From Paraspadella gotoi (taxonomy: Eukaryota; Animalia; Chaetognatha): a stretch of DNA of 64,000 bases. The notes beneath the pieces are model-generated. The model was not told the origin of the DNA. It ran no database searches and was given only the letters and a program-made list of their open reading frames with translations. Below, one piece after another: positions 27,536-57,824 of this stretch. Within the stretch, counting starts at the first letter, position 1, and the number at the start of each line of letters is the position of its first letter. The stretch lies in assembly GCA_051294375.1 (NCBI GenBank), contig CM119267.1:12843081-12907080 (forward strand), in the 5' to 3' direction. The position numbers and the translations under genes are program-made.

Positions 27536-28419
27536 TGTTTTATATAATTTTTTAATTTTTGGCTTAAAATTATAATTTTTTTAAATTTTGACAAACTTAA
27601 AAAACTTAATTAACTTAATAACATAATTTTGGAATAAAAATTATATTTTCTTATATCAACTTTTTGCAAGGAATACAAATCCATGAATAAAATTTTGAAA
27701 TTATTATTTTTTAACTTTAACCTAATTTTTATTTATAATTATTAATAAATATAGTTAACTAACTTTTTTATAAAATGTAAAATTTAGAAATAAACTTACC
27801 ATAATATTTTTATAAATCTTTATTTTTATATTTTAAAAGCACATGTAAATTTTATAAAATTTTAATAATTTGATTTATTATAACTTATAATTGATTTTCT
27901 TTTTATGACAATTTTATATACATGAAAAATCGTCATTTTCGACAAGAAAGATAAAATTATAAAAAAAAATGGTCATCGCCATCAAATTCTACAGACTTGT
28001 TTACACTAAAATAGCTATGTACCTTATTCGATTTGTAATATTTTGTTATTTTTAAACGCCCTAATATACAATTAAAAGAGAGAGAGAGAAGCTGAACAGC
28101 CCCGTTACTTATCCAAGAAGCAGCAGTACCTATGGCGCCGGAGGTAGCACGAGCTCCTCCCAACCCAAGGGATTCGCGCCCTGCTGATTCACACAAAAAA
28201 AGCAAAAATAAAAACAAAAAAAAATCGTTTTTTACATTGGAAAGCCTACAATATATATAAAAATTGTTTTGTAAAAAAGAGAGAAAGAGAGAGAGAGAGA
28301 AAGAAGCTGGAAAGCCGCTGCAGAGCTTTTTAGACGAATCAGAAGAAGCAGTGACGGAGAAAAAGATAGAGAGAGAGAGCGACATAGAATTAAAAGGGAG
28401 AGAGAGAGAGCAACATATA

Positions 28420-28727
28420 TTGTATTTTGATGCTAGTGCGGAGTACAATAAGTATTCCCCGATCTAATACTTAAGGGAGTGTCTTTTCATACAATTGAAA
28501 CATTCTTTGAAATATTTTCCACTTCATTGATAGGGAAGCCAGGTACTCTGGGAGTGAATAAACGAGATTGTGAGAGAGTCTTGATTGAAAGCTTGCAGGG
28601 ACCTGCTATGTCATTATCTTGTAAGAGTGATGGAGGCCTTAAACCACCAAAGCCTGTCCAAAGTCAGGGGCAAGATAGCTTATTTATTAAATGAATGGAT
28701 AATTTTATATTGGTTGTACCAATTTCA
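28420..28727 (-). repeat. ~300-bp interspersed repeat (SINE-like or other non-autonomous TE)
   Basis: Homologous plus-strand copies at 44985-45241, 46140-46290, 46293-46607 and 52648-52804. Confidence 0.8.
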
Positions 28728-29305
28728 TCATTAATTAAAACGTTTTTGTTTTGTAAATAAAACAAACAAATATGAATATTGATATAAAACATGACAATTT
28801 CAAAGATCTCGATGATTAGAAGCCATATCTGAAGAGACAGTAATTATTGTTATGTGAAAGTGACAGAACCGTTCAATATAAGCAGTCCCTGAGCTTCGGA
28901 TCAGGCTGTAACACCATGTTACAGGTGGGTTAAGCGCCCCGTCCCTCTTAACTGCTAGGCGGCCACCGGGCTAGAACCCCTGACCTTTGGGTTGGGAGGC
29001 GAATGACTTGCCTCCGGCACCAATGGCCGCTGATGAACAGTTGGTGGATTTTAGTCCACCATACATCCCCCCCTCCCATAGGGAGAAGTCTGCTGCGTCT
29101 CTTCAGTGAATTGTTATTGTTGGTGGAAAGTTCGTCACCAAGTTGAGGCATGTCGCCTGATGTGTTGATGGCGGAAAGTGCATCGCCAGGTTGAGGCATG
29201 TTGCCTGAAAGTGTTGTTGTTGCTGTTGTGTTCGGAAGTCGGGCTCACCAATGAAGAGACAGTAATTATTGTTATGTGAAAGTGACAGAACCGTTCAATA
29301 TAAGC

Positions 29306-31073
29306 AAGATAGAGGCTCACCCTATCACCAGAACTACTCTCTCCCCCGGGCCTTCTCTTCCCCCTCTCAACGCCTCCTCCTCCCTTCGTCTTCCCCTCCT
29401 CTTCATCCCCGGAGTCACGGATAGAGTCTTGGAGATCGGACTCACTCTCTCAACTTCTCCTCTCGGTCTCGGGGTCTGCAAACCTTCCCTCTCCCTTCTC
29501 CCCCTTTTATGTACCCTTGATACCCTTTGTTATATCTGTTTTCCTATTACCATTACATACTTACCCTACTTACCTCTTTTTCCTGATGAGAGACTAGTTA
29601 GTACCTACCTTTAGCTAGATACCCATCTTCCCAGTGGCGCCCAATGTGGGGCTCGAACCCACGACACCGGGATTAAGAGTCCCGTGCTCCCGTCTTCTCG
29701 CCAAACTCCTGCTCTCTGCCCTTTTGTTACTCCACTCCCTACACCCCTCCTCTCTCCTGTTATTGCATAAATGGCACTCATCCATTTTCCCTATGAACTT
29801 CTCGAAAAGCCGAATTTTAGATTTCTGGATTTAAATTTTTAATTTTGAATTTCAAAATTCTTCTATAAAATTTTTTTTCTCAAACGTAAATTGTTACTAG
29901 TTTTAAATTTTGATTGTGTGTTTTATCATTTGTGGAGAATTTTAATTGCTAGTTTCAGAGTATAATTCATTGCAACATTTATTCTTCCTTGTCATCTTTT
30001 CCCACTAAATTTCGAATTCTGAAACTTTTAAAACAATTATTAATTTTCCTTAAAACGCTTCCTGTTTAAAAATTTCATTGCATTTTATTAATTCGTAGTG
30101 TGTTTTATTTGTTAATCTCACAGTATGATTCAATCCAAGTTGCATATGTTTTTTCTTTTCCGTCATGTTTTCACGCTAAACTTTCTGCAGAAATTTGGCT
30201 GATTTTCCCCCCCCTTTTATATATATTTTTTTAGTACATTTTCGCGATTTCATTTGTAAAACCCAATTATAGTTTAGTTTTCCTAAAAACAACAAAAAAA
30301 CAAAACAAAACAAAAATTGAATTTTGATCATTGTAAGTATCGTGCCATCTCCCTCCCCGGGCAATTGTAAACCCCTCGTACCCTCCTCAAAGTCAACCCC
30401 GCACAAGACTCAAGGTGAAAAATTAATCTCTTCCACCTTCCACCCTCTGACCGTCAATCCACGAGACTCAAGGCGACTTCCGGTTCCGCCCTCTCCAACC
30501 AGCGCCACTCTACCAACCTACCAATGAAGGCGTCGACACTAGAGGAGCCTAAGACGACATCCCCCCCTGCCCCCCCCCTAACAACGCGTCTAACCCACCA
30601 ATCCGCCTGACCCGGCTGGCGTCCGCCTCTGCCCCTACCTCTCCATGAACTCCACGCCCACACTAGGCCCACACCAAGATGATGGCGACGCCCACCTGTG
30701 ACATTCAAGACCCAAGTGGGCGTCTCCGACCAAGAGAGGGGCACAAGATAGAGGCTCACCCTATCACCAGAACCACTCTCTCCCCCGCGCCTTCTCTTCC
30801 CCCTCTCAACGCCTCCTCCTCCCCTCGTCTTCCCCTCCTCTTCATCCCCGGAGCCACGGATAGAGTCTTGGAGATCGGACTCACTCTCTCAACTTCTCCT
30901 CTCGGTCTCGGGGTCTGCAAACCTTCCCTCTCCCTTCTCCCCATTTTATGTACCCTTGATACCCTTTGTTATATCTGTTTTCCTATTACCATTACATACT
31001 TACCCTACTTACCTCTTTTCCCTGATGAGAGACTAGTTAGTACCTACCTTTAGCTAGATACCCATCTTCCCAG
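29306..31073 (+). mobile_element. Non-autonomous LTR element, family C: 329-bp LTRs, ~1.1-kb non-coding interior
   Basis: LTRs 29306-29634 and 30745-31073 with about 5 differences. TSD ataagc (5-7 bp, boundary ambiguous). tRNA-Lys PBS starts at 29635. PPT aagagagggg at 30732-30741. No gag/pol ORF. Confidence 0.88.
29635..29689 (-). pseudogene. 3' 55-nt copy of mature tRNA-Lys(CTT) including CCA (extended primer-binding site)
   Basis: Minus strand GAGCA-CGGGA-CTCTTAA-TCCCG-GTGTC-GTGGG-TTCGAGC-CCCAC-ATTGGGC-GCCA. Anticodon arm and T arm are intact; the 5' part is absent. Confidence 0.85.
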
Positions 31074-33513
31074 ATAAGCAGTCCTTGAGCTTCGGATCAG
31101 GCTGTAACACAATGTTACAGGTGGGTTAACTGTTAGGCGGCCACTGGGCTAGAACCCCTGACCTTTGGGTTGGGAGGCAAATGACTTGCCTCCGGCACCA
31201 ATGGCCACTGATGAACAGTTGGTGGATTTTAGTCCACCATATATCTAAATTTTCAACTCTTAATGATATCACACTTTTACAAGAATCAATCATAATTCGT
31301 AGTAGTTTTTATATAAAAATAGATAAAATTGATTTGTAAATAAAACAAACTAATCCGAATATTGATATTAAACATGACAATTTCAAAGATCTTGATGATT
31401 AGAAGCCATATCTAAATTTTCAACTCCCTATGATATCATACTTTTAATGATGGTAAAAAAGCGTAACGTCGACGACAACGACTAAGTCACAAAGAAGCCA
31501 TTCTAAATTATTATCTAGTCAGGACGGGCTTCGCCCTGTCTGGCGAGATAATTATAATTTTCTTTAATGAAATTAAGCTTGTCATTGTCGTTCACCAAGA
31601 AGCCATTCTAAATCATTATCTAGCCAGGACGGGCTTCGCCCTGTCTGGCGAGATAATTATAATTTTCTTTAATGAAATTAAGCTTGTCATTGTCGTTAAA
31701 ACAGAGCCAAGCATTAAATGATTTCGTTTTGTCCATTGAATTACAATATTTAAGGTCCACCACCAACAACATCGACTATCCCACAGGCAAAGACAACTAG
31801 ATTTAGAATATATATAGATAATAATTTATTAAAAATTTATTAATAATTTATTAATAAACAATGAAGCAGAATTTCTGAAAATCATGTCGACCCAGTTGTG
31901 GGATGTACGAATTTAAATTATAGACTATAGTAAAAGATTTTCGTAGATTAAAAAATTCCCACTAGTTTTATGTATTAAAGTAATAAAGTAAATAAACTTT
32001 TGTTCCCATCCTACACTAACTGACGAAGAGTAAGATTTCGCGTGCTCTATTATCCCGACACAGTTTTTTTTTCCAACCTCAACATTTTTTCTCCTTAAGG
32101 GATATTTCGTTTCAGTTTGTTTTGTTACTTAGCAACGAAAAATAAACGATCATTTGACATTTATACTTTCGTCATAGTGGTTATTACATAACATTGTCAC
32201 AATAGTCTCTTACCATAATTTATAATAAATGTTTCACCTACGTAGCCCAATGCCATTGGCAATGGTAATGTCCTGGTTATTGACAAGATATTCGATATTA
32301 CAATTTTATCGAGTAACAAGAAGAAAATCGAGTCAGTTGACCCACGATGATAATAATGAAGTCTCATTTCGTTATTCCGTCGTCTTCAAGAAACGACGAA
32401 TAAAGTTAAAACATTTAAGCTCCTGCAACAGTGATTTTCGAACTCTTGCTACTTAGCTTCAGTTCTTAGCTTTTTGATGATTAATAGACAACAATATTAT
32501 ACTTAGTGTAAAACGGAAACATTTATTGCAAACCCGAGGATAATGAAAATCGTATGCAACGATCAGGAAAGGAATACCGAAGTTTAAAAAATGGTCTCGA
32601 ACGTCAACCGAAAAAAATCGGGCGACTCTACAGGCAGTGTAAGAATTACAAATAATTTTTCTAAAACGTTATGTGCTTAATGAAATAATTAAATAAATGT
32701 AAAGAGTAATTGAGTACTTTGCAAGCATAAAACATTCTGAGAGCTAGTTGTAAACCGTCGAGTGTTCTGAGATGTCTTTTAAATGAATTCTGCGACTATT
32801 TACAGTGTGTCCCAATGGTGCAAATATTAAAAAAAAATAATTGTTTTTAAAAATATGCTAATTATTTTGATATTTAAATTCTTTTATTTCAAGTTTTGAG
32901 CGATTGAATCATTAAGCCAGAACAAAATGGTTGCTATTTATTCAATAAATTGTTATTAAATCAATTTAAAAAGTAATATGTATAAAGTTAGTAGATAATT
33001 TTAAAAAGAATGAATATTTCATTATAAAAGCTCTCTAGCTTAAAATATGAGGTTGTTTCTCACTGTCCTGCATCTAAGAAAACGATTTAAAAGATTATCT
33101 AATAAATATTATAAAAATGTTAATTAGATATTAAAAATTATTATTTAATAATTTTTTTAAATCATTAAAAACAATTTTGATCAATTACTTTATGTAATAA
33201 ATACAGGAGTTTGCTTTGTTCAATTTTTAAAATTTAATTATCCTATGAAATGGTCCATACCTGTGCGCTTATTCATGATAATAAATTAAAGTTTTTCGAT
33301 CTGGTATAGCCATAGCCATAGACAATAAAATTTAAATGCTAATATATACAGCATTAAAAAAAATCTATCATGAGCATAGATAAGTATTAAAATGTTTTTT
33401 GTCAAAAATGTTTTCTTCTGAGGGTACTAGCCTAATTAAAATTATTATATTATTATATTATATTTATATTATATATAAAATTATTATATTATTATATTAT
33501 TATATTATATTAT

Positions 33514-33706
33514 TGAAAAGACAGTGATAAATGTTATTTATTAATGACAGAACAGTTCAATATAAGCAGTCCGGATCAGGCTATAACACCGTGTTAAAAG
33601 CGCCCCATCCTGGCTAAAAACCTGGACCTTTGGGTTGGGAGGCGAATGACTTGCCTCCGGCACCAATGGCCGCTGATGAACGGTTGGTGGATTTTAGTCC
33701 ACCATA
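33514..33706 (-). mobile_element. TRIM family A solo LTR (internally deleted)
   Basis: TGAAAAGAC...CCACCATA with TSD ttat. Confidence 0.82.
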
Positions 33707-34027: not shown

Positions 34028-34268
34028 TGAAGAGACAATAATTATTGTTATGTGTTAGTGACAGAACCGTTCAATATAAGCACTAAGCAGTCCCTGAGCT
34101 TCGGATCAGGCTGTAACACCGTGTTACAGGCTGGTTAAGCGCCCCGTCCCTCTTAACTGCTAGGCGACCACCGGGCTAGAACTCCGTACCTTTGGGTAGG
34201 GAGGCGAATGACATGCCTCCGGCACAAATGACCGATGATGAACGGTTGGTGGATTTTAGTCCACCATA
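34028..34268 (-). mobile_element. TRIM family A solo LTR
   Basis: TGAAGAGAC...CCACCATA with TSD tgtc. Confidence 0.9.
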
Positions 34269-35077: not shown

Positions 35078-36075
35078 ATGCAGCAGAAAGGTTCAAGAGG
35101 GTCACGACGATCTGGACAAAGCTGGCGAGAACGTCAACGCTCCGGTACCAACGACACCTTTCGTGATCGACCGGATGACCTATTCCCGCGTCTCTACGCT
35201 CTGTATTATGAAAAGAAAGTTTTATCTTCTGAATTATTAAATAATTTTTATGACCGAGACGAAGATTTGACTACTTACAACTTGTACAAGAACTTCAGCT
35301 ATTGATGACTTTGCAATTAAAATTATCGTAAAGGCGTAAACTGAATCATCGTCATTATTCAGCTCAGACAAAACGAGAAAAACGATCCGTTCGCTGATGA
35401 AGAAGGAGAGCTTTACGGTACAAGAAAAAAATCATTATAATTTTAATTTCCTTAAGTCATATAATTTTTTTTTCGAAGACTTTGATTCGATGGATGTCTC
35501 CTTTCAAACGGGTGAGTAACAATTACGATAACAAAATTACTAGCATCATTCCCAAAACTATTGCTCACTTCCTGTAACAGCGAGCAACGATACATTTGCT
35601 GGTACCGTTGCTGTTAGGCTGGACGACGCTTGTGCCATCTCAAAGGCGACGGAGGGGCATCTGTTTAAAACTGCGGTATAAAATAGCTAATAAAATATAA
35701 AACTATGGTAGACTAAAATCCACCAACCGTTAATCCGCGGCCATTGGTGCAGGAGGCAAGTCATTCGCTTCCCAACCGAAAGGTCAGGGGTTGTTGTCCG
35801 GTGGTCGCAAAGCAGTTAAGAGGGACGGGGAGCTAAAAGTCTAAAACCCGCCTGTATCAAGGTGTTAAAGCCTGATCCGAAGCTCAGGGACTGCATATAT
35901 TGAACGGTTCCATCAATAACAATTATTTATGTCTCTTGAAAACACGATTGAAAAAAAATAATTGTTTGATAATCCCACTTTGTGTTCACTTTATGAAGCT
36001 TATCCCTTTTATTTAGATGGATAAACAAACGCAGCAGGAAGAAGAAAATCGCTTAAAGAAACGCTTCATGTGTGG
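35078..36075 (+). CDS. Possible small multi-exon gene of unknown function
   Basis: ATG-initiated GC-richer ORF followed by short blocks with splice-like borders (ttcgaag|...|gtgagt; aacag|...|gtata; atttag|atg). Reading frame not resolved and no recognisable domain. Confidence 0.3.
35704..35939 (+). mobile_element. TRIM family A solo LTR (diverged)
   Basis: TATGGTAGAC...GTCTCTTGA with TSD aaac. Confidence 0.85.
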
Positions 36076-36738
36076 TATAAAAAAAGAACTTTTTATTGGA
36101 CTTCTCGTTTTTGTCATAGTCTTTGGCCTACTAACCCTAATTATTATGGTAGTTTTATTTTCTTAAAAATATTGAAAACTTCCCGATTTTTTCTTAGTCT
36201 CGAGGTTATGAAAGTCCGGAAGTTCTTTGCGAGTTTGATCTGGAACCTGAGCAGTACGCTCAACCAATTTGATAATTTTTTTTCCCTTTTTTCATCATTA
36301 GTGTTTTAAGTTTAATGCTGCTATTAAATAACGGTTTAAATGTTTGAAAGGAACCCCCTCCTCGACCTAGCGGAGAGGGAGAAGACGTTGGGAGAGAAAC
36401 TGGACTGAAAACCGGGACCGCTGGCGCCGTAAAGTTTATAAGTTTCTTATCCACTTGGAGTCTTGATGTTAATGGGTACCTTAATAATATAATCAAAGCA
36501 TATAGATATACAATCAAATTGAATCAATAATAATAATAAACAATAATACTACTAACAATCAATAAAAATAACAGAACNNNNNNNNNNNNNNNNNNNNNNN
36601 NNACAAGTGATCGCAGAAGAAACACGGAGTAATTATATAAAAGCACAGAAGCTGTCCAAACGTCTATTTAGTCTGAAGAGTCTGACCCAAATGAGCCGAA
36701 AGTCAATATCTCTCTTAATTAATCTCTCTTAAATGGGA

Positions 36739-39700
36739 GACAAAAAGAGCATCTGGGTTACGGTCGTCTGGACTTTACATGTTCAGTTTGGGGTATACTC
36801 ATTAAGAAAAAGGGTCATTCAATTCAACTTCAAAATAAGCCAAAATGGAGTACAAATTCAGAAAGCTGAGCTCCTGGCGATTCCGAAAATGTATTCACTT
36901 TAAACATTTGATGCATTCTACCCCATTTTATATCGGTTTTAATTATAATATAAAATAAAAGAAACCTATCTGAAGAGTTGCAGGTTAAACGAAAAGGCCA
37001 ATCCATGTGATATTTTTTATGAATTTTTTATTACTGAATTAGAAAAATGTAATAGACATTTTTAAATTTCAACTTGTATCCTTGAAAATGAAACATTTTT
37101 AAACTTTAACCCTGAATTCTTTCTAACTGGAACGCATTTATCAAAATGTCTCTCTATTACATTTTTACAAATGTTTTTAAGATTGCTAATCAAATTTTTA
37201 ATTCAATAATATTGCAGTCATCTAGGCTGCAACTCTTCAAATTCAGTGTAGATTCATTGTAGCTCGAATTTCTTTACTATCTATTTAACTGAAGATTTTG
37301 TTCATGACTGGAAAACCAACAGAGTAACGAGATTAATTGTTTAATTCTCCCCTTCTAAACTAACCCATACCGTGTTTTTAACTTCTTACCTAGAATTTTT
37401 TAACAAACAGATTGAAAAAAAAATCTTTAAAAAATGTGCTTACCCATTTAACTTAACAATTTTGTTATTTACCAATTTCAAAAAAAATATTTAAAACACA
37501 ATGTTGACATATAAATAAAAACTTTTTTGGTGATTACTGGTGATTACGATGTATTTCTCGATGTATTAGCTCTAATACATCAATGATTACGTATTGTTAT
37601 GCTGAATGACCTTTCCTCTTAAGGCGGAACAAAGTAAAAACTAAGGGTTTTGTATTATAAATAACGTTAGATTGACGAGATTTAAAAAAATTAAGATTTT
37701 ATATATAGTTAATAACATAGAAGCATTTAAAGTTTATCATATTACTATAAATCAAAATTTTTTTTTTTCAAAATCAGGATTCGGGTAGAAAAAATTAATA
37801 AAAAAATATTATTACAAAATTTTTAAATTTTTTATTTATTGCTTAAATTAACAAAAACTATAAAAATTATAGTACGACGATGATGATGATAATTTTAAAA
37901 CATATCATATCATCGAAATATTGAAATACGCATTATACTTTGCATAAACAACTTTTTATGGGCTATCTGAATCCGTTTTTAAAAATAAATTTTTTACAAA
38001 ATTTATTTTCATTGCCTATGCATTGATAAATATTTAAATGCTTTAATGTTATACTGTGCTTCACTAGTTAAAAAGTGATAGGAAATATTGATTAAATATA
38101 TAATAAACAAATTAATTTTATATTACAGAACTCTTAATGATAAAAAGTGATCAATTTTAGCCCGCCTTAATATTCATACACGTTCTTATATTCAGAGTGA
38201 TACTGTATGAGTGACTACTGAATAATCTAATTTAACGTTAGTCTCTTACGTCCGGTTGACATTTAGGAAATTGGTACAACCAATATAAAAATTATCCATT
38301 CATTTAATCATTCATTCATTTATCATTCATTTATTCTACAGTAGCCATAGCCGATGAAATTTAAATGCTAATGTATACAGCGTTAAAATAATCTATCATG
38401 ACCATAGATTATGGTATTAAAATTTTTTTTTGTCAAAAATGCTTTCTTCTGAGGTACTCGCCTAATTAAATATATAATATTACTATATTGAGCAAAAAAT
38501 ATTTTTTTTAAATCTTAAAATTTTTTGATGGATTCTGATAGAGCATAAAAAGTTAAACAAGAAATATAATTACAGCTTTTAAAAATTCTTACGTTTTCTA
38601 AGTGAAAATATAAAAAAACTGATAAAATCATCGAAAGATGATGATGATGATGATTTTTTATAGTTTTTCTTATTTTTGACACACTTATCGTAAAAATATT
38701 TAAAAAAGAATCATACTTTGTGTAGACACAAAAAGAGCATCTGGGTTACGGTCGTCTGGACTTTACATGTTCAGTTTGGGGTATACTCATTAAGAAAAAG
38801 GGTCATTCAATTCAACTTCAAAATAAGCCNNNNNNNNNNNNNNNNNNNNNNNNNATAAGCCAAAATGGAGTACAAATTCAGAAAGCTGAGCTCCTGGCGA
38901 TTCCGAAAATGTATTCACTTTAAACATTTGATGCATTCTACCCCATTTTATATCGGTTTTAATTATAATATAAAATAAAAGAAACCTATCTGAAGAGTTG
39001 CAGGTTAAACGAAAAGGCCAATCCATGTGATATTTTTTATGAATTTTTTATTACTGAATTAGAAAAATGTAATAGACATTTTTAAATTTCAACTTGTATC
39101 CTTGAAAATGAAACATTTTTAAACTTTAACCCTGAATTCTTTCTAACTGGAACGCATTTATCAAAATGTCTCTCTATTACATTTTTACAAATGTTTTTAA
39201 GATTGCTAATCAAATTTTTAATTCAATAATATTGCAGTCATCTAGGCTGCAACTCTTCAAATTCAGTGTAGATTCATTGTAGCTCGAATTTCTTTACTAT
39301 CTATTTAACTGAAGATTTTGTTCATGACTGGAAAACCAACAGAGTAACGAGATTAATTGTTTAATTCTCCCCTTCTAAACTAACCCATACCGTGTTTTAA
39401 CTTCTTACCTAGAATTTTTTAACAAACAGATTGAAAAAAAAATCTTTAAAAAATGTGCTTACCCATTTAACTTAACAATTTTGTTATTTACCAATTTCAA
39501 AAAAAATTTTAAAACACAATGTTGACATATAAATAAAAACTTTTTTGGTGATTACTGGTGATTACGATGTATTTCTCGATGTATTAGCTCTAATACATCA
39601 ATGATTACGTATTGTTATGCTGAATGACCTTTCCTCTTAAGGCGGAACAAAGTAAAAACTAAGGGTTTTGTATTATAAATAACGTTAGATTACGAGATTT

Positions 39701-42417
39701 AAAAAAATTAAGATTTTATATATAGTTAATAACATAGAAGCATTTAAAGTTTATCATATTACTATAAATCAAAATTTTTTTTTTTCAAAATCAGGATTCG
39801 GGTAGAAAAAATTAATAAAAAATATTATTACAAAATTTTTAAATTTTTTATTTTATTGCTTAAATTAACAAAAACTATAAAAATTATAGTACGACGATGA
39901 TGATGATAATTTTAAAACATATCATATCATCGAAATATTGAAATACGCATTATACTTTGCATAAACAACTTTTTATGGGCTATCTGAATCCGTTTTTTAA
40001 AAATAAATTTTTTACAAAATTTATTTTCATTGCCTATGCATTGATAAATATTTAAATGCTTTAATGTTATACTGTGCTTCACTAGTTAAAAAGTGATAGG
40101 AAATATTGATTAAATATATAATAAACAAATTAATTTTATATTACAGAACTCTTAATGATAAAAAGTGATCAATTTTAGCCCGCCTTAATATTCATACACG
40201 TTCTTATATTCAGAGTGATACTGTATGAGTGACTACTGAATAATCTAATTTAACGTTAGTCTCTTACGTCCGGTTGACATTTAGGAAATTGGTACAACCA
40301 ATATAAAAATTATCCATTCATTTAATCATTCATTCATTTATCATTCATTTATTCTACAGTAGCCATAGCCGATGAAATTTAAATGCTAATGTATACAGCG
40401 TTAAAATAATCTATCATGACCATAGATTATGGTATTAAAATTTTTTTTTGTCAAAAATGCTTTCTTCTGAGGGTACTCGCCTAATTAAATATATAATATT
40501 ACTATATGAGCAAAAAATATTTTTTTTAAATCTTAAATTTTTGATGGATTCTGATAGAGCATAAAAAGTTAAACAAGAAATATAATTACAGCTTTTAAAA
40601 ATTCTTACGTTTTCTAAGTGAAAATATAAAAAAACTGATAAAATCATCGAAAGATGATGATGATGATGATTTTTTATAGTTTTTCTTATTTTTGACACAC
40701 TTATCGTAAAAATATTTAAAAAAGAATCATACTTTGTGTAGACAAAATGTTTTTAAGATTGCTAATCAAATTTTTAATTCAATAATATTGCAGTCATCTA
40801 GGCTGCAACTCTTCAAATTCAGTGTAGATTCATTGTNNNNNNNNNNNNNNNNNNNNNNNNNNNNNNNNNNNNNNNNNNNNNNNNNNNNNNNNNNNNNNNN
40901 NNNNNNNNNNNNNNNNNNNNNNNNNNNNNNNNNNNNNNNNNNNNNNNNNNNNNNNNNNNNNNNNNNNNNNNNNNNACTGAAGATTTTGTTCATGACTGGA
41001 AAACCAACAGAGTAACGAGATTAATTGTTTAATTCTCCCCTTCTAAACTAACCCATACCGTGTTTTAACTTCTTACCTAGAATTTTTTAACAAACAGATT
41101 GAAAAAAAATCTTTAAAAAATGTGCTTACCCATTTAACTTAACAATTTTGTTATTTACCAATTTAAAAAAAAATATTAAAACACAATGTTGACATATAAA
41201 TAAAAACTTTTTTGGTGATTACTGGTGATTACGATGTATTTCTCGATGTATTAGCTCTAATACATCAATGGGATTACGTATTGTTATGCTGAATGACCTT
41301 TCCTCTTAAGGCGGAACAAAGTAAAAACTAAGGGTTTTGTATTATAAATAACGTTAGATGACGAGATTTTAAAAAAATTAAGATTTTATATATAGTTAAT
41401 AACATAGAAGCATTTAAAGTTTATCATATTACTATAAATCAAAATTTTTTTTTTTCAAAATCAGGATTCGGGTAGAAAAAATTAATAAAAAAATATTATT
41501 ACAAAATTTTTAAATTTTTTTATTTTATTGCTTAAAATTAACAAAAACTATAAAAATTATAGTACGACGATGATGATGATAATTTTAAAAACATATCATA
41601 TCATCGAAATATTGAAATACGCATTATACTTTGCATAAACAACTTTTTATGGGCTATCTGAATCCGTTTTTAAAAAATAAATTTTTTACAAAATTTATTT
41701 TCATTGCCTATGCATTGATAAATATTTAAATGCTTTAATGTTATACTGTGCTTCACTAGTTAAAAAAGTGATAGGAAATATTGATTAAATATATAATAAA
41801 CAAATTAATTTTATATTACAGAACTCTTAATGATAAAAAGTGATCAATTTTAGCCCGCCTTAATATTCATACACGTTCTTATATTCAGAGTGATACTGTA
41901 TGAGTGACTACTGAATAATCTAATTTAACGTTAGTCTCTTACGTCCGGTTGACATTTAGGAAATTGGTACAACCAATATAAAAATTATCCATTCATTTAA
42001 TCATTCATTCATTTATCATTCATTTATTCTACAGTAGCCATAGCCGATGAAATTTAAATGCTAATGTATACAGCGTTAAATAATCTATCATGACCATAGA
42101 TTATGGTATTAAAATTTTTTTTGTAAAAATGCTTTCTTCTGAGGGTACTCGCCTAATTAAATATATAATATTACTATATTGAGCAAAAAATATTTTTTTT
42201 AAATCTTAAAATTTTTTGATGGATTCTGATAGAGCATAAAAAGTTAAACAAAAATATAATTACAGCTTTTAAAAATTCTTACGTTTTCTAAGTGAAAATA
42301 TAAAAAAACTGATAAAATCATCGAAAGATGATGATGATGATGATTTTTTATAGTTTTTCTTATTTTTGACACACTTATCGTAAAAATATTTAAAAAAGAA
42401 TCATACTTTGTGTAGAC
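36739..42417. repeat. Near-identical ~2-kb tandem triplication with N gaps
   Basis: Units at ~36739-38727, 38728-40743 and a partial 40744-42417. Differences are mostly homopolymer indels. Confidence 0.85.
37623..38166. mobile_element. Kolobok-like MITE (TTAA TSD), present in each triplication unit
   Basis: ttaa-GGCGG...CCGCC-ttaa with weak internal inverted symmetry. Confidence 0.55.
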
Positions 42418-42979
42418 AACTTTTTATGAGCTATCTGAATCTGGTCTTAAAATTTAAAAATTCAAAAAAAAATTTTTGGCCTTTCCTATCTATAAATAAA
42501 TATTACAAAATTAATTACTAGGGTATAGAGCCATATTAAAAATTTTTGGTCCATTGAAAGTATTCTTAAAAATGTCTAAATATTCGTTTGAGCATGTACT
42601 CACTCAAAATTTTTTGACTCACCCCATTGAGTGCGGCTACCCCTATCTACAGCGCTCTTTTGTTTTATTTGAGGTCTGGAGGATGTTATTGTCTTGAACG
42701 CCTCTAGCGACACAGCAAAGAATCTGTTTTTTCATATCATTGACTCCACGGATAAAAATTTTCATGTTCTCGTTTTTCGTCAAAGAACCTTTCAAACGAC
42801 GTCAAAGACCCCTTTATTGGTAATTGGTAAAAGAGCGTAAGTTTGTGATCGCATACATGTATTGCAACGTGTATTGCGACAGGTATTGTAACTAACAATT
42901 ACAAGATACTTTCTCCCGCGCTACCCTTCATTCGCTCATACCTCCCGTGCCATTTCCTCTTTTGCGTGCAGATGCTCGA

Positions 42980-44695: not shown

Positions 44696-47600
44696 ATGCG
44701 GCGGAAACGGCCGACGAATGTCTTGCAGATCCTGGACTCGCGCGAGCGTAATCTCTTCCCGTGGTCGCGAGTGAAGCATCTTAGTTACGCCAACTACCGT
44801 CTCCTGAAGGAATTGATATTATCGAAAGATGCCAAGTTTCGTGTTGTCAAAACTATTCGGTCACGCGGCGGGGGAATCTTTTATGAGCAAAGGAGGTTGT
44901 TCCAGAACGGCTACACTACTTCCTTACCATGTCACACTAATGATGGAGGTTAGCACAGAGATTCGTGTTGCAAAAATTTATTATCAAATTGATACAACCA
45001 ATATACAAATTGTCCATACATGGACAGGCTTTGGTGGTTTCAGGCCTCCATCACTCTTACAAGATAATGACTTAGCAGGTCCCTGCAAGCTTTCAAGTTT
45101 ATTCACTCCCAGAGTACCTGGCTTTCTTATCAATGAAGTGGTATAATGTTTTAAAGAATGTTTCAATTGTATGAAAAGACCACTCCCTTAAGTATTAGAT
45201 CGGGTAATACTATATTGTACTCCACCCAGCATCAAAATACAAGGAGCTGAATTTTATGAAATTGGTACAACCAATATATAAATTATCCATTTATTTAATA
45301 AATAAGCTATCTTGGGCGATCTCGGAGTTGAATACGCTCTGGAGGCTTATTGGAAAACGAAAAGAAAGATGAAAAATTAAAGTTTGTTTCTTTACGGAAA
45401 AGAAAATTTAAGACCGTAACCACAATGATATTAAAAACGTTGATAAGCTTCACGGGCGAAGGTTTCTTTTTTTTTAAATATTAATATTTTGTGGCGGTAT
45501 ATTCACACCGCCTTACGTCCACCATCCTTCAGCCAAATCCATTGGCTCAGAGGGGGAACACACCATCCCAGGCGTAGTGTTCCATCCACAGTCCTAATGA
45601 CTTCCCTCTGCGTTGGCAAAGCGGGACCGTCCTAGGGTAACCGCGCCAGTGACTGGAGGCGTCACTGAGAGTCGGAAGCCCCCAAAGCCAACAGTGAGAT
45701 GCCCCATCCCAATGGGCATCACAGGCATTAGGACTGTGGATTGAACACTACGCCTGGGATGGTGTGTTCCCCCTCTGAGCCAATGGATTTGGCTGAACGA
45801 TGGTGGACATGAGGCGGTGTGAATATACCGCCACAGGATCCCCAGGCCAAGACATCACTCTGGTTCCTCAAGCCTGAGAGGTGTCTGACAAGACAGTTAC
45901 CATAGTAAGAGAGAGAGAGCACGCAAGTTGTGGGGGCATAGGCGTTTGTCGTAGCGTACCCCAGGGCATAGGCGTTTTGTCATAGCGTACCCGAAGTTGG
46001 CAGGGCATAGGCGTTTGTCGTATCATACCCTGAGAAGGTTGCGTGATCGATAGAAGGGTTCTTCCGTTACTTTTATCTTTTTCCATTAATTCTTTAAAAA
46101 AAACTTTGCTTTTCGTTTTCCATATGCCTCCAGATATGTCTTTGGACAGGCTCTAGTGGTTTAAGGCCTCCATCATCTCAAGATAATGACATAGCAGGTC
46201 CCTTGAAGCTTTCAATCAAAACTCTCTTTCAGTCGAGTTTATTCACTCCCAGAGTACCTGGCTTCCCTATCAATGAAGTGGTATAATATATATGAAATTG
46301 GTACAACCAATATAAAAAATTATCCATTCATTTAATAAATAAGCTATCTTGCCCCTGACTTTGGACAGGCTTTGGTGGTTTATGGCCTCCATCAGCATCA
46401 CTCTTCCAAGATAATGATATAGCAGGTCCCAGCAAGCTTTCAATCAAGATTCTCTCAGTCTCGTTTATTCACTCCCAGAGTACCTGGCTTCCCTATCAAA
46501 GAAGTGGTATAATATTTCAAAGAAAATTTTTCAATTGTATGAAAAGACCACTTCCTGAAGTATTAGATCGGGGAATATTTATTGTATTCTGCACTAGCAT
46601 CAAAATATATATATAATAATAAAAATATATAATATTGATATGTCTAAAGCAGTTATACATTATTAGAATTAGAACTGTTTAAACGTTTCGGTTTTTACTT
46701 ATTTAATTCTAGTTATTTCGGGTTCATGGTACCGTGACAAGAGGACCGCTGTTAAAGATGGCGCGCTTTTCCTAATGTGCCCCGTTAACCAGATCTTAAA
46801 TGACGGCGAGGGTAAAATTCTTGTATCTTGTTTGCTATTTCAATCGAATTTCGTTTTTTTTAATATATGCATTCCAAAATCTTCAGGGAAAGCTCATTTT
46901 CGAAACTCGGTGATAGGGCTGTCCAAGCAACGTGATCGGAATGGCGCTCATAACCTAATCTTTATCGATTTTCATACCGGAAAAGATTGGCATAACGTGG
47001 AGCTTCCAATAGGCTACCTAAATAGTAAGATTTAAATATCATACTTGTTGCTAGGAGAAAAATGAATGTGACTAATTGTTAGAGATAAAATCTTTTGGAG
47101 GATACTGTACTATCTTGAAAAATGAAGTTCCCAAGGGTTAATTTTACTTTCGCCGACCAGAGTTAGGGGGGTTTAGGGTTACGGGTAGTTAAGGTTAAGA
47201 GGGGTTTTTCAAAAAACTCCTAAACCCTGGTCGGCAAAAGTAAAATTTTGACAGGTGTGTGGTTCAAATGAAAAGAATGTAATAATTTTTTTTTAAATAA
47301 TTTTTTAATAAATTATATTGGTAATATTTTACTTTCACCAACCGGGGTTTTGGTGTCTTTTGAAAAACCATTTAAAAATACTTTTTAAAAAAATATTACT
47401 TAATTACCTTAACCTTAACTACCCTTAACTGTAAACCACCCCTAAACAACCATAAACCCCCCCTTCACCTCGGTCGGCGAAAGTAAAATTAAACCATTAT
47501 AGTTATACTTAATATAACGTCTGGGTTTTTTGAACTATGCCTCATTTGATTTCAGTATTAAGGTGTTTTGTATCAATAAATATTTACTCAATACTCATAT

Positions 47601-50600: not shown

Positions 50601-53600
50601 TATTTAAATGCAAGATGTAATTATTAATCAAATAATTAATCAGTTAATTAATAAATTAGTCAATTAATTACTAAATAATTAATTTAATGGTCAATTAATC
50701 TATTTATAAATTAATTATTCAATTAATTTATCATTTAAGTCAAGAGTTATCGGCATTATTGTCGTCGTCGCCATCATCGTTGACGTCGTTGCTTTTGTCG
50801 TGGTCAGTGACGAAAAGACCTAAAAACAAATATTTTGGATCAAATTAATTAATTTGTTAATTAAATAATTTTAGTTTATATAGTTTGTATTAATTAATTA
50901 ATAAATTAATTACCGCTAATGATCGTGAGCAGATTCGATATTGTTTGCTCCAACATTTTTTATCGTCGCAATCGCTTAGCGTTTGCGACGATATTGTAAT
51001 GCTTTTGCGCATAAGTGGCGTTGTCGTCGTCGTTGTTGTCGTCGGCGTTCCAAATTATAGATCGCCTTTTTTAGTCGGATCTGCTTATCAGAAAATCCCG
51101 ACTCTATAATTCACTTTGTCGGTCCGTCGGTCCGTCCCCTCAATATTGTTGGGCATTAACTTATATCATGTCAGAACATCGAATTATGATAAATTGTGCA
51201 AAAAAAATTATGTCCGTCCGTCCGTCCCACCTTAGCAAAAAACACCAATTACTCGTGATTGGATGGATGGATTTGAATGAAATTTAGTGTGTGGGTAGGG
51301 AATATAAAGTTTCGTTGGAATCGTCTGAGTGGAAATGAGTTTAAATAGAAAAAACAAAAAAATATAATTCACTATTTGAACACCAATTGCTCATGAGTGG
51401 ATGGGGCGATTGACCTGGAATTTTGTATGTGAGTAGAAAAGTGTGTAATTGAACAGGAAACCAAGTTTCGATGGAATCGTTTGAGTGGAAATGAGTTTAA
51501 ATGGAAACAAACAAAAAACCTGTTTCACTAATTGATTATGATTTTTTTTCCTTTTATATTAAATGTATATGCAGGATGTATTAATAAATCAAATAATTAA
51601 TCAGTTAATTAATCAATTAGTGAATTAATTAATCACTAATTAATTAATCAGTCAATCAATCCGTCCATCCGTCCCACCTTAGCAAAAAGCCCCAAAAGGC
51701 TGGTTGGATCGGAATGAAATTTGTGTATGGGTAGGAACATGTGTGATGAAGCTGGATATAAAATTTCGACGGAATTGTGTGAGTGGATATGAGTTTAAAT
51801 GGAAAAAAAAGGGGCATTTACTAAAATCTTTTTACTTATTTTAACTAATAAATACTGAGTTCAAATTTTGTGTGTGGGTAGGAAAATGTGTGACGAAGCT
51901 TGATATAAAGTTTCGGTACGAGTGGAAATGAGTTTAAATGAAAAAAATATGAGTCACATTTACTTTATTTTAAAGACATCGATGATGATAAGCGGTATAT
52001 AAATTTATAATTAATTATTAAATATTAAAATTAATTAATCGATTAATTAATTAATTTTTGTAGTATGGTGGACTAAAATCCACCAACCGTTCATCAGCGG
52101 CCATTGGTGCCGGAGGCAAGTCATTCGCCTCCCAACCCAAAGGTCCGGGGTTCTAGCCCGGTGGTCGTCTGGCAGTTAAGAGGGACGGGGCGCTTAACCC
52201 ACCTGTAACATGGTGTTACAGCCTGATCCGAAGCTCAGGGACTGCTCATATTGAACGGTTCTGTCATTAACACTTATCAATAATTACTGTCTCTTCACTA
52301 TTTTATTTTTATATTTCTTTCTCTCTCTCTTTTCTCTTTTAATTACATGTCCCTCTACCTTTCTCTTTTCCCAAGTCACTGATTCATAGGGAAAAAAAAC
52401 GAGTCTGCAGCTGGCTCTGCAGGGGCTTATTCGTTTTCTCCTGCTGCTTCTGCTGCTGCCTTTTGAGTCTGCTGCTGGCTCTGCAGGGGCTTATTCGTTT
52501 TCTCTCTTTTTTCCTGCTGCTTCTGCTGCTGCCTTTGTTTTCTTTCTTTTTTTCTGGATGCCTCTGCTACTGCCGCTGCTGATTTCGTCCGAAAACGATT
52601 TGGCTTCTCTCTCTCTCTCTTTAAGACCCTTTTTCTTAATAAATATTAAATAAGCTATCTTGCCCCCCTGACATTGAACAGGCTTTGGTTGTTTAAGGCC
52701 TGGCTTTCCTATTAATGAAGTGGTATAATGTTTCAAAGAATGTTTCAATTGTATGAAAAGACCACTCCCTTAAGTATATTGTACTCCACCCAGCATCAAA
52801 ATACATTATTTTATTTCTATGTCACTGCAGATGGCTCACCCCGTGCACGTTTTTGGCAGGAGTTGGATTGGAACATAGATCAGGAATCACTTTTCTTGCG
52901 GTCCACGCATGGAATGCCTCGATTTAGAACCGCTGTACCGGAGGAAGATATTCCTGATCAACGGCATGACGCAGACTTTGTTGTTGCCTTTTTAGTTCTT
53001 TCTGTTCACCCGGCTGAGGTTCGTTGTAAAATGGATATAAAATGAACGAGTCAATGAATCAACGTGGTTATTTCGTTTTTAGTTAAGTTTAAAGAAAAAA
53101 AAAATTTTCAGTTTTTTATTTCGTTGAAAATAATATATAATTATATACGTATGTCTCGTTATACTTCGAAAAGATGGAAAAATGTTAATTTTTGCTTCAC
53201 TTTTAGGTTATCGCTAGTTTTACAATATCGAAGTCTGTTTTCGGTTCACGTATTGGACTGGCTTCAATTAATAACGACTGCCTTATTACATTGTATTCTC
53301 GTGACGTAATAAAAATTCATAGTCTTTTGGACTTAATGATTGCCAACCCCGAGATGAAATCAGCAAGAAAAAGCTTTAATAAAGATTCTGTGATACCTAA
53401 GGTTTGTAATAACTGCTATTTCTTCCTAGAAATGTTTATGAAAATTTGAAAATTACTTGTTTCACTATTTTATATTTTAATTTTTTATGAAGGAATAACA
53501 AGTAATAATAGTTAATAAATATTTTAGATTATCTCAGTTCCACCGGTGTTATTCAACATAAAGTCCGACGATTTTTACCTGGAGCTAGGAGGATTTCCTT

Positions 53601-54419
53601 GGCACGCTCTCGTCAAGGTGTGGAAAAGCTGTTTGTTTAACCGCTTCACTATTAATATTTAAGCTATTTGTATAGAGTAAGTTTTGTTCTTTTTTGTCAG
53701 CTAAAAAAGTCATCTTTAAATGATTGTAAGTTTGCATTAGTGGATATAGCGTCGGGTCGCACCAGCGGTGTCATCGGCAGCAGTGACCGGTTGTCTCTTG
53801 ACCCGGAAGTCGCTAACTTTCGCGACGATTCCGGAATCGTGGTCTACGTTAGTCAGGACAGACTGCAGGTTCGCGCAATCGTTATTTATTTAGTATTTTT
53901 CTATCCCGCTAAAATAAAAATTGGCTCCCCAAGACGTTCCGGATCGCACGCGACGCACCTCGAAATGACGGAACTCGCTTCGATTGCTCGCCTTTTCTCG
54001 AGGTCAAATATACGCTAACTACGAGCCTTTGCGGCGGGAAAACGTTGTCGCCTCCCTCCGATGACGGGACGACCGTGACTCGAAGCGGCCGTCGCGTTAA
54101 GAAGCGTCAGTCCCTCGATCCAGATAATCTGCGCGGAGAATTTGTTTGCACGGGTTACGAGGATGACCTCGACTTGACTTTTGTCGTTCATCTAGATCAC
54201 AATCTTGTCAACAATGAGGGGAAGGCACAGTTGTGGCTCGTCGAGGACAACGTTGGCAAGGTTCTCAAGAAGATTTCCTTGCGAACCAAATGGGACGATG
54301 AGGAGGACGTTTTGGAAAACAACGTGGAAATGGATTTAGATTTGATAATACATTCCATACTAAAGTACAACGGCGAGACCGAATGCGTTGTCTATGCGTT
54401 GGATAGAACAATATATTGA
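44696..54419 (+). CDS. DCAF17: DDB1- and CUL4-associated factor 17 (multi-exon)
   Basis: Approximate exons: 44696-44948, 46713-47024 (possible 75-nt intron), 52831-53018, 53207-53401, 53528-53617, 53701-53867, 53934-54419. The motifs NVLQILDSRE..ANYRLLKELI..KF, CPV, LDW..QE, PPVLF..LGGFPWH, DSGIVVYV, TVTRSGRRVKK, YEDDLDL, EGKA and GKVLKKISL..W are collinear with DCAF17 as recalled. Confidence 0.88.
44985..46607 (+). repeat. Cluster of ~300-bp interspersed repeats in DCAF17 intron 1
   Basis: Copies at 44985-45241, 45255-45313 + 46140-46290 (split by an insertion), and 46293-46607. Confidence 0.75.
45490..45835. mobile_element. Family B LTR-like copy fused to an inverted partial copy
   Basis: 45490-45727 matches 14879-15110. 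45728-45835 is the reverse complement of its first ~108 nt. Confidence 0.75.
47134..47495. mobile_element. Small MITE-like inverted-repeat element
   Basis: ggttaattttactttcgccgacc at the left end and ggtcggcgaaagtaaaattaaacc at the right, plus internal copies of the same motif. Confidence 0.65.
48105..48610 (+). mobile_element. Penelope-like pLTR fragment with hammerhead motif at 48518-48552
   Basis: CTGATGA-A-GACTT-gtaataa-AAGTC-GAAAC-ATGTA. Homologous to 2765-3245. Confidence 0.7.
48845..48995. repeat. 18-bp tandem repeat (TTCAACTCGATTCTTTTT)
   Basis: About 8 tandem copies. Confidence 0.9.
50093..51960 (+). mobile_element. Adjacent Helentron/HINE-like copies (H1 50093-50955; H2 start 50960-51070; H1 from 51074)
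   Basis: Same subTIRs, hairpins and internal repeats as the 22790-27535 and 20890-21912 elements. Confidence 0.62.
52064..52297 (+). mobile_element. TRIM family A solo LTR containing a tRNA-like unit (52097-52168)
   Basis: TATGGTGGAC...GTCTCTTCA. Flanks gtag/ctat do not form a TSD. A-box-like TGGTGCCGGAGG and B-box-like GGTTCTAGCCC. Confidence 0.85.
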
Positions 54420-54826: not shown

Positions 54827-56384
54827 CAGGGTTGGCATTAAAAAACCCACCCAAAAAAACCTACTAAAAAGTAGGTTTTTTTGGTTTTTTTTTAAATTAC
54901 TTAAATTTTTTAATGTGAAACTGAAGAGACTGTAATTATTGTTATGTGTTAATGACAGAACCGTTCAATATAAGCAGTCCCTGAGCTTCGGATCAGGCTG
55001 TAACACCGAGTTACAGGCGGGTTAAGCGCCCTGTCCCTCTGCTAGGCGGCCACCGGGCTAGAACCCCGGACCTTGGGAGGCGAATGACTGGCCGCTGATG
55101 AACGGTTGGTGGATTTTAGTCCACCATACATCCCCCCCTCCTATAGGGAGAAGTCTGTTGTTGTTGGTGGAAAGTTCGTCACCAAGTTGATGTGTTGTGT
55201 TGATGGCGGAAAGTGCATCGCCAGGTTGAGGCATGTCGCCTGAAAGTGTTGTTGCTGTTTTGTTCGAACTGCCAGGCGGCCACCGGGCTAGAACCCCAGT
55301 TGGGAGGTGAATGACTTGCCTCCGGCACCATTGGCCGCTGATGAACGGTTTGTAGATTTTAGTCCACCATAAAACATTAAATTGTTGAAGAAAAAATTTA
55401 AATCATATAAGATCTATCATTTTTTAAAGCTTAATATATAATTTAATGATAAAAAATAACCCTAAACCTATGTTTTACTTGTTTACTATCAGTATCACTT
55501 TCGTTGCTGGCTTCTGTACCATTTTCCTTATATTAAGTAATTCTAATCGTGAATCGCAAATTATGTTAAGAGCAACACATTAAAAATGATTGCTATTCTT
55601 TCATTATTATTTAACACAAGGTTAGGGTTCTTTTAAAGCTATTTATCAGAAAAAATTAAACTTCAATATAATTATATATTTTATTATAGAATTCGTTTTT
55701 AATTTGAGATTACAACGATTTTTATTTCAATCTCAAATTAAAAATGTTTTCTATTATCAAATACAACGAATTGAAAGGAAACAAACAATGTTTAATTATA
55801 TATTTGAATATTTGTCACACGTTAAAGAATTCTCTTTAAAGGTATACTTACCAGGAGTAAAGTAACGAGAATGCAGGTAAATAATATATTGACGTCAGGA
55901 AAAAATCTTAGCTTAATCCGAACATCAAAATTTATTTTTAGCCCAAAAGACAAGTTCGGCAAAAACATGTACTAAAGATGTACTTCAATTTTTAATGTAA
56001 TAGTAATTTCTATAAATGTTATATAAATGTTATATAAATGTTTATGATGCATATTTATATCAAATTATTTTGAGTATTTAATTACTTTTTTCTAATAAAA
56101 TTAAGTTTATACACTTTTTTCATAACAGGTTTTATTCAGAAAATATAATATTTATTACATTTCTGTTTACCATAAAAAATATTAATTAATTAATACTATT
56201 ATTAAATATAATCAGTATATTTTTATATATTTTTATCAATAATCACTTAAGAAGTTTAAATATTTTAAATTTGTTTATTAAAAAGAAATAATATGACAGT
56301 CTGCTATCTATAATTTAAAAAAAAACCAAAAAAACCCAATAAAACCAAAAAAAACCTAAAAAACCCAGGTTTTTGCCAACCCAG
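54827..56384. mobile_element. hAT-like MITE
   Basis: TIRs CAGGGTTGGCA / TGCCAACCCAG. 8-bp TSD atttatta at 54819-54826 and 56385-56392. aaaacc subterminal repeats. Confidence 0.85.
54922..55371 (-). mobile_element. TRIM family A two-LTR element with internal deletion
   Basis: Full LTR 54922-55128, PPT complement, internal region, then a truncated second LTR. TSD aaac. Confidence 0.85.
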
Positions 56385-57197
56385 ATTTATTACCACAAAA
56401 ATATTAGTTTACCTTAATTTTAAACTTCATGAAGATCAGCAGTTCAAGTCAGTTTTGGAATAATTTGGGAAAATTGGAAGTAAAATGCTGAACCATGCAT
56501 CTTAAAACTATGCTTAATTATTAAAAAATTATTAATTTTATTTTTTTTTTAATTTTTATTTTTTTTTTAGTTTTTTAATTTTTAGTTTTTTTTATATGTT
56601 TAAAACGTCAATGCACCTGATGCTACTAAAAAATTAAAAAAACAATTTTTAGATTTTTTTGCCCCCCCAGGGGTCCACTCTTGTCAATGTCAGGGGTTGA
56701 ATATTAAAATTCGCCTCGATAGTTCCATTTATATCGTCATTAGGACTCTCAATGTAAAATTTCATGAAATTCGATCAGGTAGTTTGATAGGAAAAGATTC
56801 TGGTCACAAAAAAAGGGGTACCTCATTTTATAATATGAAGCCTTCTGTATATAATTCATTGTACAAAGATCTAAAAAAAAAGTTGTCCAATTATTTGCGC
56901 TGTAACGAAATTTTTAATTGACCATATTATCAAATAAAATAATTTTCTCATATTTTGGTCCATGTGCGTATTTTTTTTCACTTATTGATTCTGAAATTAA
57001 AGTAATCAAAGTAATTTTTTTCTTGTTTACAAATTACAAAGCGTTTACCCTGTTATTTTTTCCTTTTGATTTGATTCTCTTAGTCTTACGCGTAAATTTC
57101 ATTTTAATTAATTTTTAATAATTTTTTTTATAAAATAAAGGTCTTCAGTCTCATACTTTCAGTTTTTTAATTTTTTTTATTTTAAACTCAAATCAAA

Positions 57198-57824
57198 ATG
57201 TCAAAAGAACATCAGCCTGTCAAGATAACCGAGAGCCAGGAGGGGCCCAAAAATTTACGTGAACTCATACAAGGACTGCATGAGCTCTTTGCTCCGGAAA
57301 CGGTGAATGCTGACCGCGTCAAACGTTGGCTAGAACTTTTTCCCGTCAATCTCAAGGAAATGGAGCCATACTCGATCTACGATCCCCATCGCTACACTCG
57401 AAACTTGGTCGACGCCGGCAACGGGAGGTTTAATCTCATCTTGATGGGCTGGGGTGAGGGTCAATCCACGGGCATCCACGACCACTCCGGTTCCCACTGC
57501 TTCATGAAGATCATTGATGGCGAGGTTATTGAGAACCTCTTCGATTGGCCCGACGAAAACAAAAACGAGCAGATGCTTAAATCGCGAAAGACGACGGTGT
57601 TTCGATCGGGTCAGGTGGCATACATCAACGACTCCCTCGGGCTACATAGGATTGGGAATTCTAGCGACGTCAACAAAGCGTCGTCACTTCACGTCTACGT
57701 TCCTGCCTACGATATGTGTCACCGATTTGACGACCGAACCGGCCAGAAAATTGCGATCAATCTCGTTTTTCACTCCAAATACGGCGAGAGATACGGCAAC
57801 ATAAACGTCAACATGGATATGTAG
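57198..57824 (+). CDS. CDO1: Cysteine dioxygenase type 1 (intronless)
   Basis: 208 aa. YTRNLVDAGNGRFNL, W..GQSTGIHDHSGSHCFMK, LGLHRIGN and SLHVY motifs. The three-His iron ligands and the Cys/Tyr cofactor residues are retained. Confidence 0.95.
   Translation: MSKEHQPVKITESQEGPKNLRELIQGLHELFAPETVNADRVKRWLELFPVNLKEMEPYSIYDPHRYTRNLVDAGNGRFNLILMGWGEGQSTGIHDHSGSHCFMKIIDGEVIENLFDWPDENKNEQMLKSRKTTVFRSGQVAYINDSLGLHRIGNSSDVNKASSLHVYVPAYDMCHRFDDRTGQKIAINLVFHSKYGERYGNINVNMDM

Follow-up and report, generated by a model that had tools for sequence, protein, structure and literature searches.

Here, we describe a repeat family, family A, within 64,000 nucleotides of DNA from the chaetognath Paraspadella gotoi (GenBank assembly GCA_051294375.1, contig CM119267.1, positions 12,843,081 to 12,907,080 of the forward strand; hereafter the window), with a focus on the copy that begins at 52064. 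We put at roughly 0.6 the probability that the element is a non-coding, Helenus-type miniature retrotransposon with terminal repeats (TRIM) whose long terminal repeats (LTRs) combine a tRNA remnant, likely an RNA polymerase III (Pol III) promoter, with a predicted self-cleaving type-P5 twister ribozyme, making it a likely animal LTR retrozyme. Three repeat families share a type-P5 twister layout, and compensatory changes are found among them in each of its two pseudoknots. An earlier note on this DNA, which had read the LTR as carrying a tRNA-like Pol III unit in analogy to Cassandra, is partly supported overall; it overlooked a twister-type fold that begins directly after the tRNA remnant and that probably changes how the RNA ends arise, namely by predicted self-cleavage and probably not by a Cassandra-like start and stop. 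The copy under study has these features:

52064-52297 (+): family A solo LTR, termini TA...CA, flanks GTAG/CTAT without duplication
52066-52085 (+): LTR terminal hairpin of 7 bp, predicted
52086-52093 with 52252-52259 (+): long-range helix of 8 bp, predicted, enclosing tRNA remnant and twister fold
52097-52168 (+): degenerate unit of tRNA origin that forms no cloverleaf and resembles Gly(CCC) in its anticodon position only
52105-52116 (+): A-box-like motif covering tRNA positions 8-19, with C at position 14 as in most copies
52131-52133 (+): CCC anticodon-like loop
52150-52158 (+): B-box-like motif covering tRNA positions 53-61, with T at position 57
52171-52246 (+): type-P5 twister-ribozyme layout (LTR 108-183), predicted cut between 52195 and 52196
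52189-52194 (+): self-complementary 6-nt linker replacing stem P1

All elements of the published twister layout, taken from Table 1 of PMC8501958, are found behind the remnant in permuted order: P5, P2', GA (52184-52185), T1', linker, UAA, P2, T2, P3 and P4, the last with the loop U-T1-AA-T2'. The element order, UAA, GA, both pseudoknots and the P4 loop are those of the type-P5 twister (RF02684), from which family A differs in its palindromic hexamer as P1, in a P2 that is 1 nt shorter with a terminal mismatch, and in the presence of P3, which family D also has. The lead to this layout came from a second repeat, family C, which Rfam Twister-P5 matches weakly (25.8 bits, gathering score 37.6; E = 0.32 over the whole window and 5.6e-4 in a post hoc 111-nt search); family D matches more weakly still (17 bits, E 0.12, below the same gathering score). 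The two families are represented by:

28416-28728 (+): family C repeat, same twister layout at 28626-28668, without a tRNA remnant
22050-22334 (+): family D solo LTR, TG...CA, target-site duplication (TSD) AGGG; a further high-copy family
about 22106-22178 (+): family D tRNA-like unit, followed by the twister layout at 22193-22257

A pairing descriptor, written after families A and C had been seen, gives three matches of identical spacing in the window, in family C, in the family A copy at 34028 and, as its only prospective match, in family D at 22193. Across 300 shuffled windows it found 143 loose matches, with a single window holding three and none holding two of the observed spacing, and shuffles of the elements themselves (10000 each) matched 0 times for family A (the 34028 LTR), 0 times for D and 5 times for C. 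As an unplanned positive control the descriptor also recovered a long-P1 type-P5 layout in a viral contig (L016:396-452), a locus that is not a relative. It had been collected with a degenerate pattern (5-bp P4 form), which also gave fifteen metagenome loci that neither keep the pairings nor resemble the window (0/15).

A structure-blind MAFFT alignment of seven copies (five A, one C, one D) shows pairing in 92.5% of 199 alignment cells, a share that falls to 29-51% when the partners are slid. Two-sided changes occur in T1, T2, P2, P3, P5 and the closing pair of P4, and the pseudoknots covary in T1 (C-G/U-A and G-C/A-U) and in T2 (G-C/A-U). In BLAST comparisons with C and D, the family A LTR shows no significant similarity (best E 0.2).

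The 34028 copy has a complete twister core (34094-34151). The core breaks of the other family A copies differ from copy to copy, save for a mismatch in the 2-bp pseudoknot T2 that 52064 (at 52201) and 28830 have in common; it lies at a CpG site, where the pairing base makes up 99% of the depth in public contigs. These contigs hold thousands of records on the family A repeat (10426 in run X1; depth there does not equal copy number), and their common variants preserve pairing or sit mostly in the P3 loop. The ribozyme of the 52064 copy itself is predicted to be impaired, because one T2 mismatch lowers cleavage in screened twisters: in a type-P1 screen a single mismatch in the corresponding pseudoknot cut mean cleavage from 0.76 to 0.53, this being the defect class that lowered cleavage most, while P1 and P2 defects were tolerated (PMC11662667).

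The tRNA-like segment of the earlier note lies where it had been placed, inside the LTR, with a 7-bp acceptor-like stem (two G.U pairs in the 52064 copy), both box-like motifs and the CCC anticodon-like loop; the A14 reported for the 6283 and 35704 copies is there as well, though it is a minor allele in public contigs. Scoring used the 25 invariant positions of textbook tRNAs. The segment matches 22 of them at canonical spacing without gaps, a score that none of 1500 shuffles reaches, and the seven family A copies scored span 19-22. At a relaxed setting, which yields 13 calls across the whole window, ARAGORN calls a tRNA-Gly(CCC) pseudogene at exactly these coordinates (86% of threshold, reached by 36 of 2000 shuffles, p about 0.02) and calls the segment in three of six family A copies (85-86% of threshold). 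In family D the tRNA-like unit matches 21 of the 25 positions (9 of 1500 shuffles reach that) and has near-canonical boxes.

The D and anticodon stems of the family A unit are mostly unpaired, and its predicted fold is a different stable structure; a functional tRNA is ruled out by these two observations together with the silence of default ARAGORN and RF00005. The relaxed ARAGORN run also proposed a second tRNA (Tyr/Leu) at LTR 108-184, at 72-81% of threshold with 80% reached by 173-199 of 2000 shuffles; it was set aside, and the twister layout is preferred there. Because the tRNA motifs persist while stem pairing is lost, the remnant fits a promoter read at the DNA level, as the pattern of sequence retention suggests. 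Conservation of the boxes and of the rest of the LTR was compared in public contigs, where variants are few everywhere along the LTR. The remnant is real but decayed, and a putative Pol III promoter.

The family A repeat measures 234 bp, and 11 LTR pieces in the window make up seven insertions, three with two LTRs (6283-6885, 28830-31241 and 54922-55371) and four solo LTRs. Besides the copy under study, these are, with their landmarks:

6283-6885 (-): full-length TRIM, 5' LTR 6669-6885, interior 152 nt, 3' LTR 6283-6516, TSD AAAC
6655-6667 (-): primer-binding site (PBS), 12 of 13 nt matching the tRNA-Trp-type PBS of PMC10886601 Fig. S2A by eye
28830-31241 (-): full-length TRIM, interior 188 nt, TSD GATA
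29066-29077 (-): polypurine tract (PPT), 2 nt ahead of the 3' LTR
29305-31073: family B LTR element that splits the 5' LTR of the 28830 TRIM
33514-33706 (-): solo LTR with deletions, TSD ATAA
34028-34268 (-): solo LTR, TSD GACA
35704-35939 (+): solo LTR, TSD AAAC, with an insertion in the P1 linker
54922-55371 (-): TRIM with internal deletion, TSD GTTT

An exact 4-bp TSD flanks six of the seven insertions. The exception is the 52064 copy. The sequences on its two sides each match a separate piece of other repeats, one in the opposite orientation to the other, and this points to a recombinant solo LTR. The PBS opens the interior (152 or 188 nt) in two elements and is deleted in the third, and the PPT closes it; the orientation that the earlier note had set by PBS and PPT thus stands on other copies, the 52064 copy being a solo LTR. 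The two-LTR element, put at 620-656 bp, is non-coding, in keeping with a TRIM (short interior, under about 1 kb), and no reverse transcriptase or integrase was found among 61 open reading frames (ORFs) scanned of the 269 in the window. Loose ends in public contigs place the LTR ends sharply at TA and CA; a start at TG was ruled out, as loose ends cluster at the TA start (131 vs 31 contigs, run X1). The LTR-interior-LTR structure and the 4-bp TSDs rule out a short interspersed element, and Rfam scans of the window and of family A gave zero matches to 5S rRNA. Two LTRs, 6669-6885 and 54922-55128 (-), have each lost 16-17 nt of the A-box region; the breakpoints differ slightly between the two and lie close to a CATT that is repeated. 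Family C has TG...CA-like ends and T4 runs, with no TSD, PBS or interior identified for it in the window; further pieces lie at 45021-45314, 46137-46615 and 52644-52809 (-).

Family A is a Helenus member. Helenus elements are TRIMs with tRNA-like LTRs, named as the twin of Cassandra and assigned to the proposed group TRIMp3 (Kojima 2024, PMC10886601); six animal phyla have them, their TSDs are 4 bp long and their PBSs of Gypsy type, and their Pol III activity is unvalidated (PMC10886601). Family A resembles them as a non-coding LTR element inside the 311-1263 bp range with a tRNA-like unit in sense, the GGTTC of box B, a PBS and PPT and a non-functional tRNA, and its 4-bp TSD is that of animal Helenus; LTRs starting with TA occur among the entries of PMC10886601 Data S1. 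It differs in its box A, TGGTG...AGG against the stated TRGCY...YGG, a partial match, and in the twister fold behind the tRNA unit. It is a different Helenus family from those listed, because none of six family A 9-10-mers occurs in the PMC10886601 supplement. The anatomy fits the earlier note's proposal of a TRIM that has a Gypsy-type partner and whose tRNA-derived unit is probably one for Pol III, but the design had already been published as Helenus, so that the idea of a tRNA in the LTR is already in print; the addition of the twister joins Helenus and retrozyme features.

The text of PMC10886601 never mentions the twister, and the word ribozyme appears once, in a reference title. By eye, however, two gall wasp entries of its Data S1, Helenus-2_SyJa and Helenus-2_SyUm, show a tRNA-like unit with a self-cleaving-ribozyme motif directly behind it, and like family A they have no T4 run in the LTR and a tRNA-Trp PBS. 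Unlike in family A, the motif is, again by eye, a type III hammerhead with complementary loops, unremarked in the paper's text. This precedent for a promoter-plus-ribozyme LTR supports the mechanism and limits the novelty.

Plant LTR retrozymes, as characterised in PMC4918200, are likewise non-autonomous, with a ribozyme in each LTR, a PBS and PPT, a 4-bp TSD, no R region and a Gypsy partner. They differ in using a hammerhead, a tRNA-Met PBS and circles of 600-1000 nt, with no tRNA-derived promoter, and cleavage and circles have been demonstrated for them and are predicted for family A. The family A LTR holds no hammerhead core; the family is accordingly not an LTR retrozyme as defined in plants, and would work like one if the putative twister is active. 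The twister T-variants of Schistosoma Perere-3 described in PMC8501958 also have a weak P1 and lie inside a retrotransposon, but they are type-P1, the element is an autonomous non-LTR one that has them at its 5' end, and the target site supplies P1. Cassandra, as described in PMC10886601, is a TRIM with a small-RNA-derived Pol III unit in its LTR; unlike family A it is a plant element with a 5S-derived unit, and its ends are determined by where Pol III starts and stops. A search of CC-licensed PMC and bioRxiv literature, which leaves Repbase and Dfam outside its scope, turned up Helenus, hammerhead retrozymes and twisters in non-LTR elements, and found neither a twister in an LTR nor a dimeric twister.

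In the mechanism that we propose, Pol III would start near position 34 of the 5' LTR and read through an element nearly without T runs, and the twister in each LTR would cut at U/A (LTR 132/133) to release a unit of 422 nt, or 386 nt with the shorter interior. Circularisation is proposed because this unit would keep no terminal repeat (no R region) for strand transfer; host tRNA ligase would join the 5'-OH and cyclic-phosphate ends into a circle. A Gypsy-type partner would then use tRNA-Trp as the primer at the PBS, go round the template more than once in copying it and insert the product with a 4-bp duplication. The template is the plant retrozyme cycle, with cleavage in both LTRs and accumulating circles (PMC4918200), and RtcB circularises animal retrozyme RNA in vitro (PMC7229834).

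The least sure step is that two ribozymes may need to pair through their P1 hexamers, restricting cleavage to two-LTR transcripts; it is proposed because P1 is a self-complementary hexamer. In families A, C and D the monomeric hexamer would have a single pair, which closes a 4-nt loop, and the dimer six pairs, with a predicted self-duplex energy of -6 to -9 kcal/mol vs +4 to +6 for the hairpin. The palindrome is perfect in C and in the common D allele and has G.U ends in A, and its central pair is swapped between A and C/D, a compensatory change; self-complementary hexamers make up 2082 of 63995 in the window, about 3%. Weak hammerheads of amphibian retrozymes act as dimers (PMC7229834), and the palindrome likewise suggests a strand-swapped twister dimer. 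The strictest form of the proposal, an animal LTR retrozyme that a Pol III promoter of tRNA origin drives and that is processed by a strand-swapped twister active only as a dimer, whose palindromic P1 would let only two-LTR transcripts self-cut into a circle of ~420 nt, we put forward tentatively, at less than even odds.

The chief rival, which we think unlikely, has only the ribozyme of the 3' LTR cutting, as a substitute for a terminator, so that a linear RNA would enter ordinary TRIM replication. Such an RNA would begin at position 34 of the 5' LTR, end at position 132 of the 3' LTR and keep a terminal repeat of ~99 nt. The long-range helix needs LTR 23-30, which would be missing at the 5' end if the start is position 34, and the two ribozyme copies would therefore fold in different contexts; many published Helenus LTRs, viewed by eye, also show a T run just behind the tRNA unit, the place of the twister here. 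Yet both LTR copies of the transcript hold a complete twister core and P5, and in the LTR retrozymes of plants both LTRs are cut and circles accumulate (PMC4918200).

The reading of family A as a Helenus-type TRIM with a promoter and an active twister has further results weighing against it. For the ribozyme, these are the T2 mismatch of the 52064 copy; the passing of the descriptor by only one of nine family A LTRs spanning the region, 34028; a P2 reduced to two pairs and a mismatch, next to a complete P4; the lack of any Rfam twister match in family A, with C and D both under the gathering score; a twister segment whose fold, taken by itself, does not surpass those of shuffles (z -1.2 and -1.5); and a best predicted fold of the 34028 copy other than the twister. 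The covariation is drawn from three families only, two further P4 changes amount to a register shift, and only one of five family C copies viewed has an intact twister. Other twisters can do without P1 (PMC5408937), so that a dimer does not necessarily follow from the palindrome. For the promoter, default ARAGORN calls no tRNA at the segment, and the covariance-model check that the earlier note had asked for comes out negative, RF00005 giving no match at E ≤ 10 for the family A segment. A14 accounts for about 4-6% of summed depth (three of four public-contig runs cover the site), and the near lack of T4 runs in the element is not significant, being equalled by 504 of 5000 shuffles. The twister of family C without a tRNA unit indicates that the two parts are not obligately linked.

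A twister fold that is vestigial or structural only, in an otherwise ordinary Helenus, would agree with the silent Rfam models, the shortened P1 and P2 and a core broken in eight of nine window copies. It is very unlikely in our estimate: three families that are otherwise unlike each other retain the catalytic positions and both pseudoknots, breaks are confined to single copies while the common public-contig allele pairs, and about 94% of natural twister candidates assayed were active, type-P1 only (PMC11662667). Equally improbable is a working ribozyme beside a tRNA remnant that is no longer a promoter, the element being released from transcripts made by Pol II or by read-through, as others propose for the known retrozymes, which are said in PMC7761336 to lack promoters; A14 and R57 missing in most copies, the silence of RF00005 and the family C twister with T4 runs and no tRNA unit speak for it, and against it the 22 of 25 invariant positions that persist despite lost cloverleaf pairing suggest selection on DNA-level boxes, which are near-canonical in family D.

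Other features were noted in the window. The family B element nested in the family A LTR (+) has 330-bp LTRs that are 98% identical, non-TG/CA ends and the 5-bp TSD ATAAG, and Pfam gave no match in the few interior ORFs scanned. Its PBS continues for about 60-70 nt as an antisense copy of the 3' part of a tRNA, Lys-type by the PBS shown in PMC10886601 Fig. S2, with an Rfam tRNA match of 25.1 bits at 29645-29704 on the minus strand. Two very long single-exon ORFs, 7082-11128 and 15341-18748 (-), encode 1348 and 1135 aa rich in Asn, Ser, Ile and Leu, with no Pfam match. An intronless cysteine dioxygenase gene lies at 57186-57824 (+); its product is at most 52% identical to its database matches, of which the named ones are animals, and sits on a very long branch, unplaced in a quick tree whose 79 rows comprise the window protein together with 78 of the 120 matches listed. 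It points to a fast-evolving eukaryotic host that is likely an animal. A DCAF17 exon is found at 53913-54419 (+). A minimal hammerhead-core-like motif occurs at 36970 and 38990 (+), within a tandem repeat of ~2 kb at 36737-42419, which is possibly Penelope-type.

Two reviews describe animal retrozymes as having no LTR, PBS or PPT and retrozymes as having no promoters of their own (PMC7761336, PMC7229834); if our reading of family A as a promoter-bearing LTR retrozyme is true, it would be an exception to both statements. Few biological roles have been assigned to twisters, and family A offers a small, high-copy and directly testable one. If two copies are needed to form its P1, the twister would be a counterpart to dimeric hammerheads, and an obligate dimer, if true, would be a natural counting device by which RNAs from solo LTRs stay uncut. 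The hammerheads seen by eye in wasp Helenus suggest that promoter-plus-ribozyme LTRs arose more than once and were overlooked in repeat libraries.

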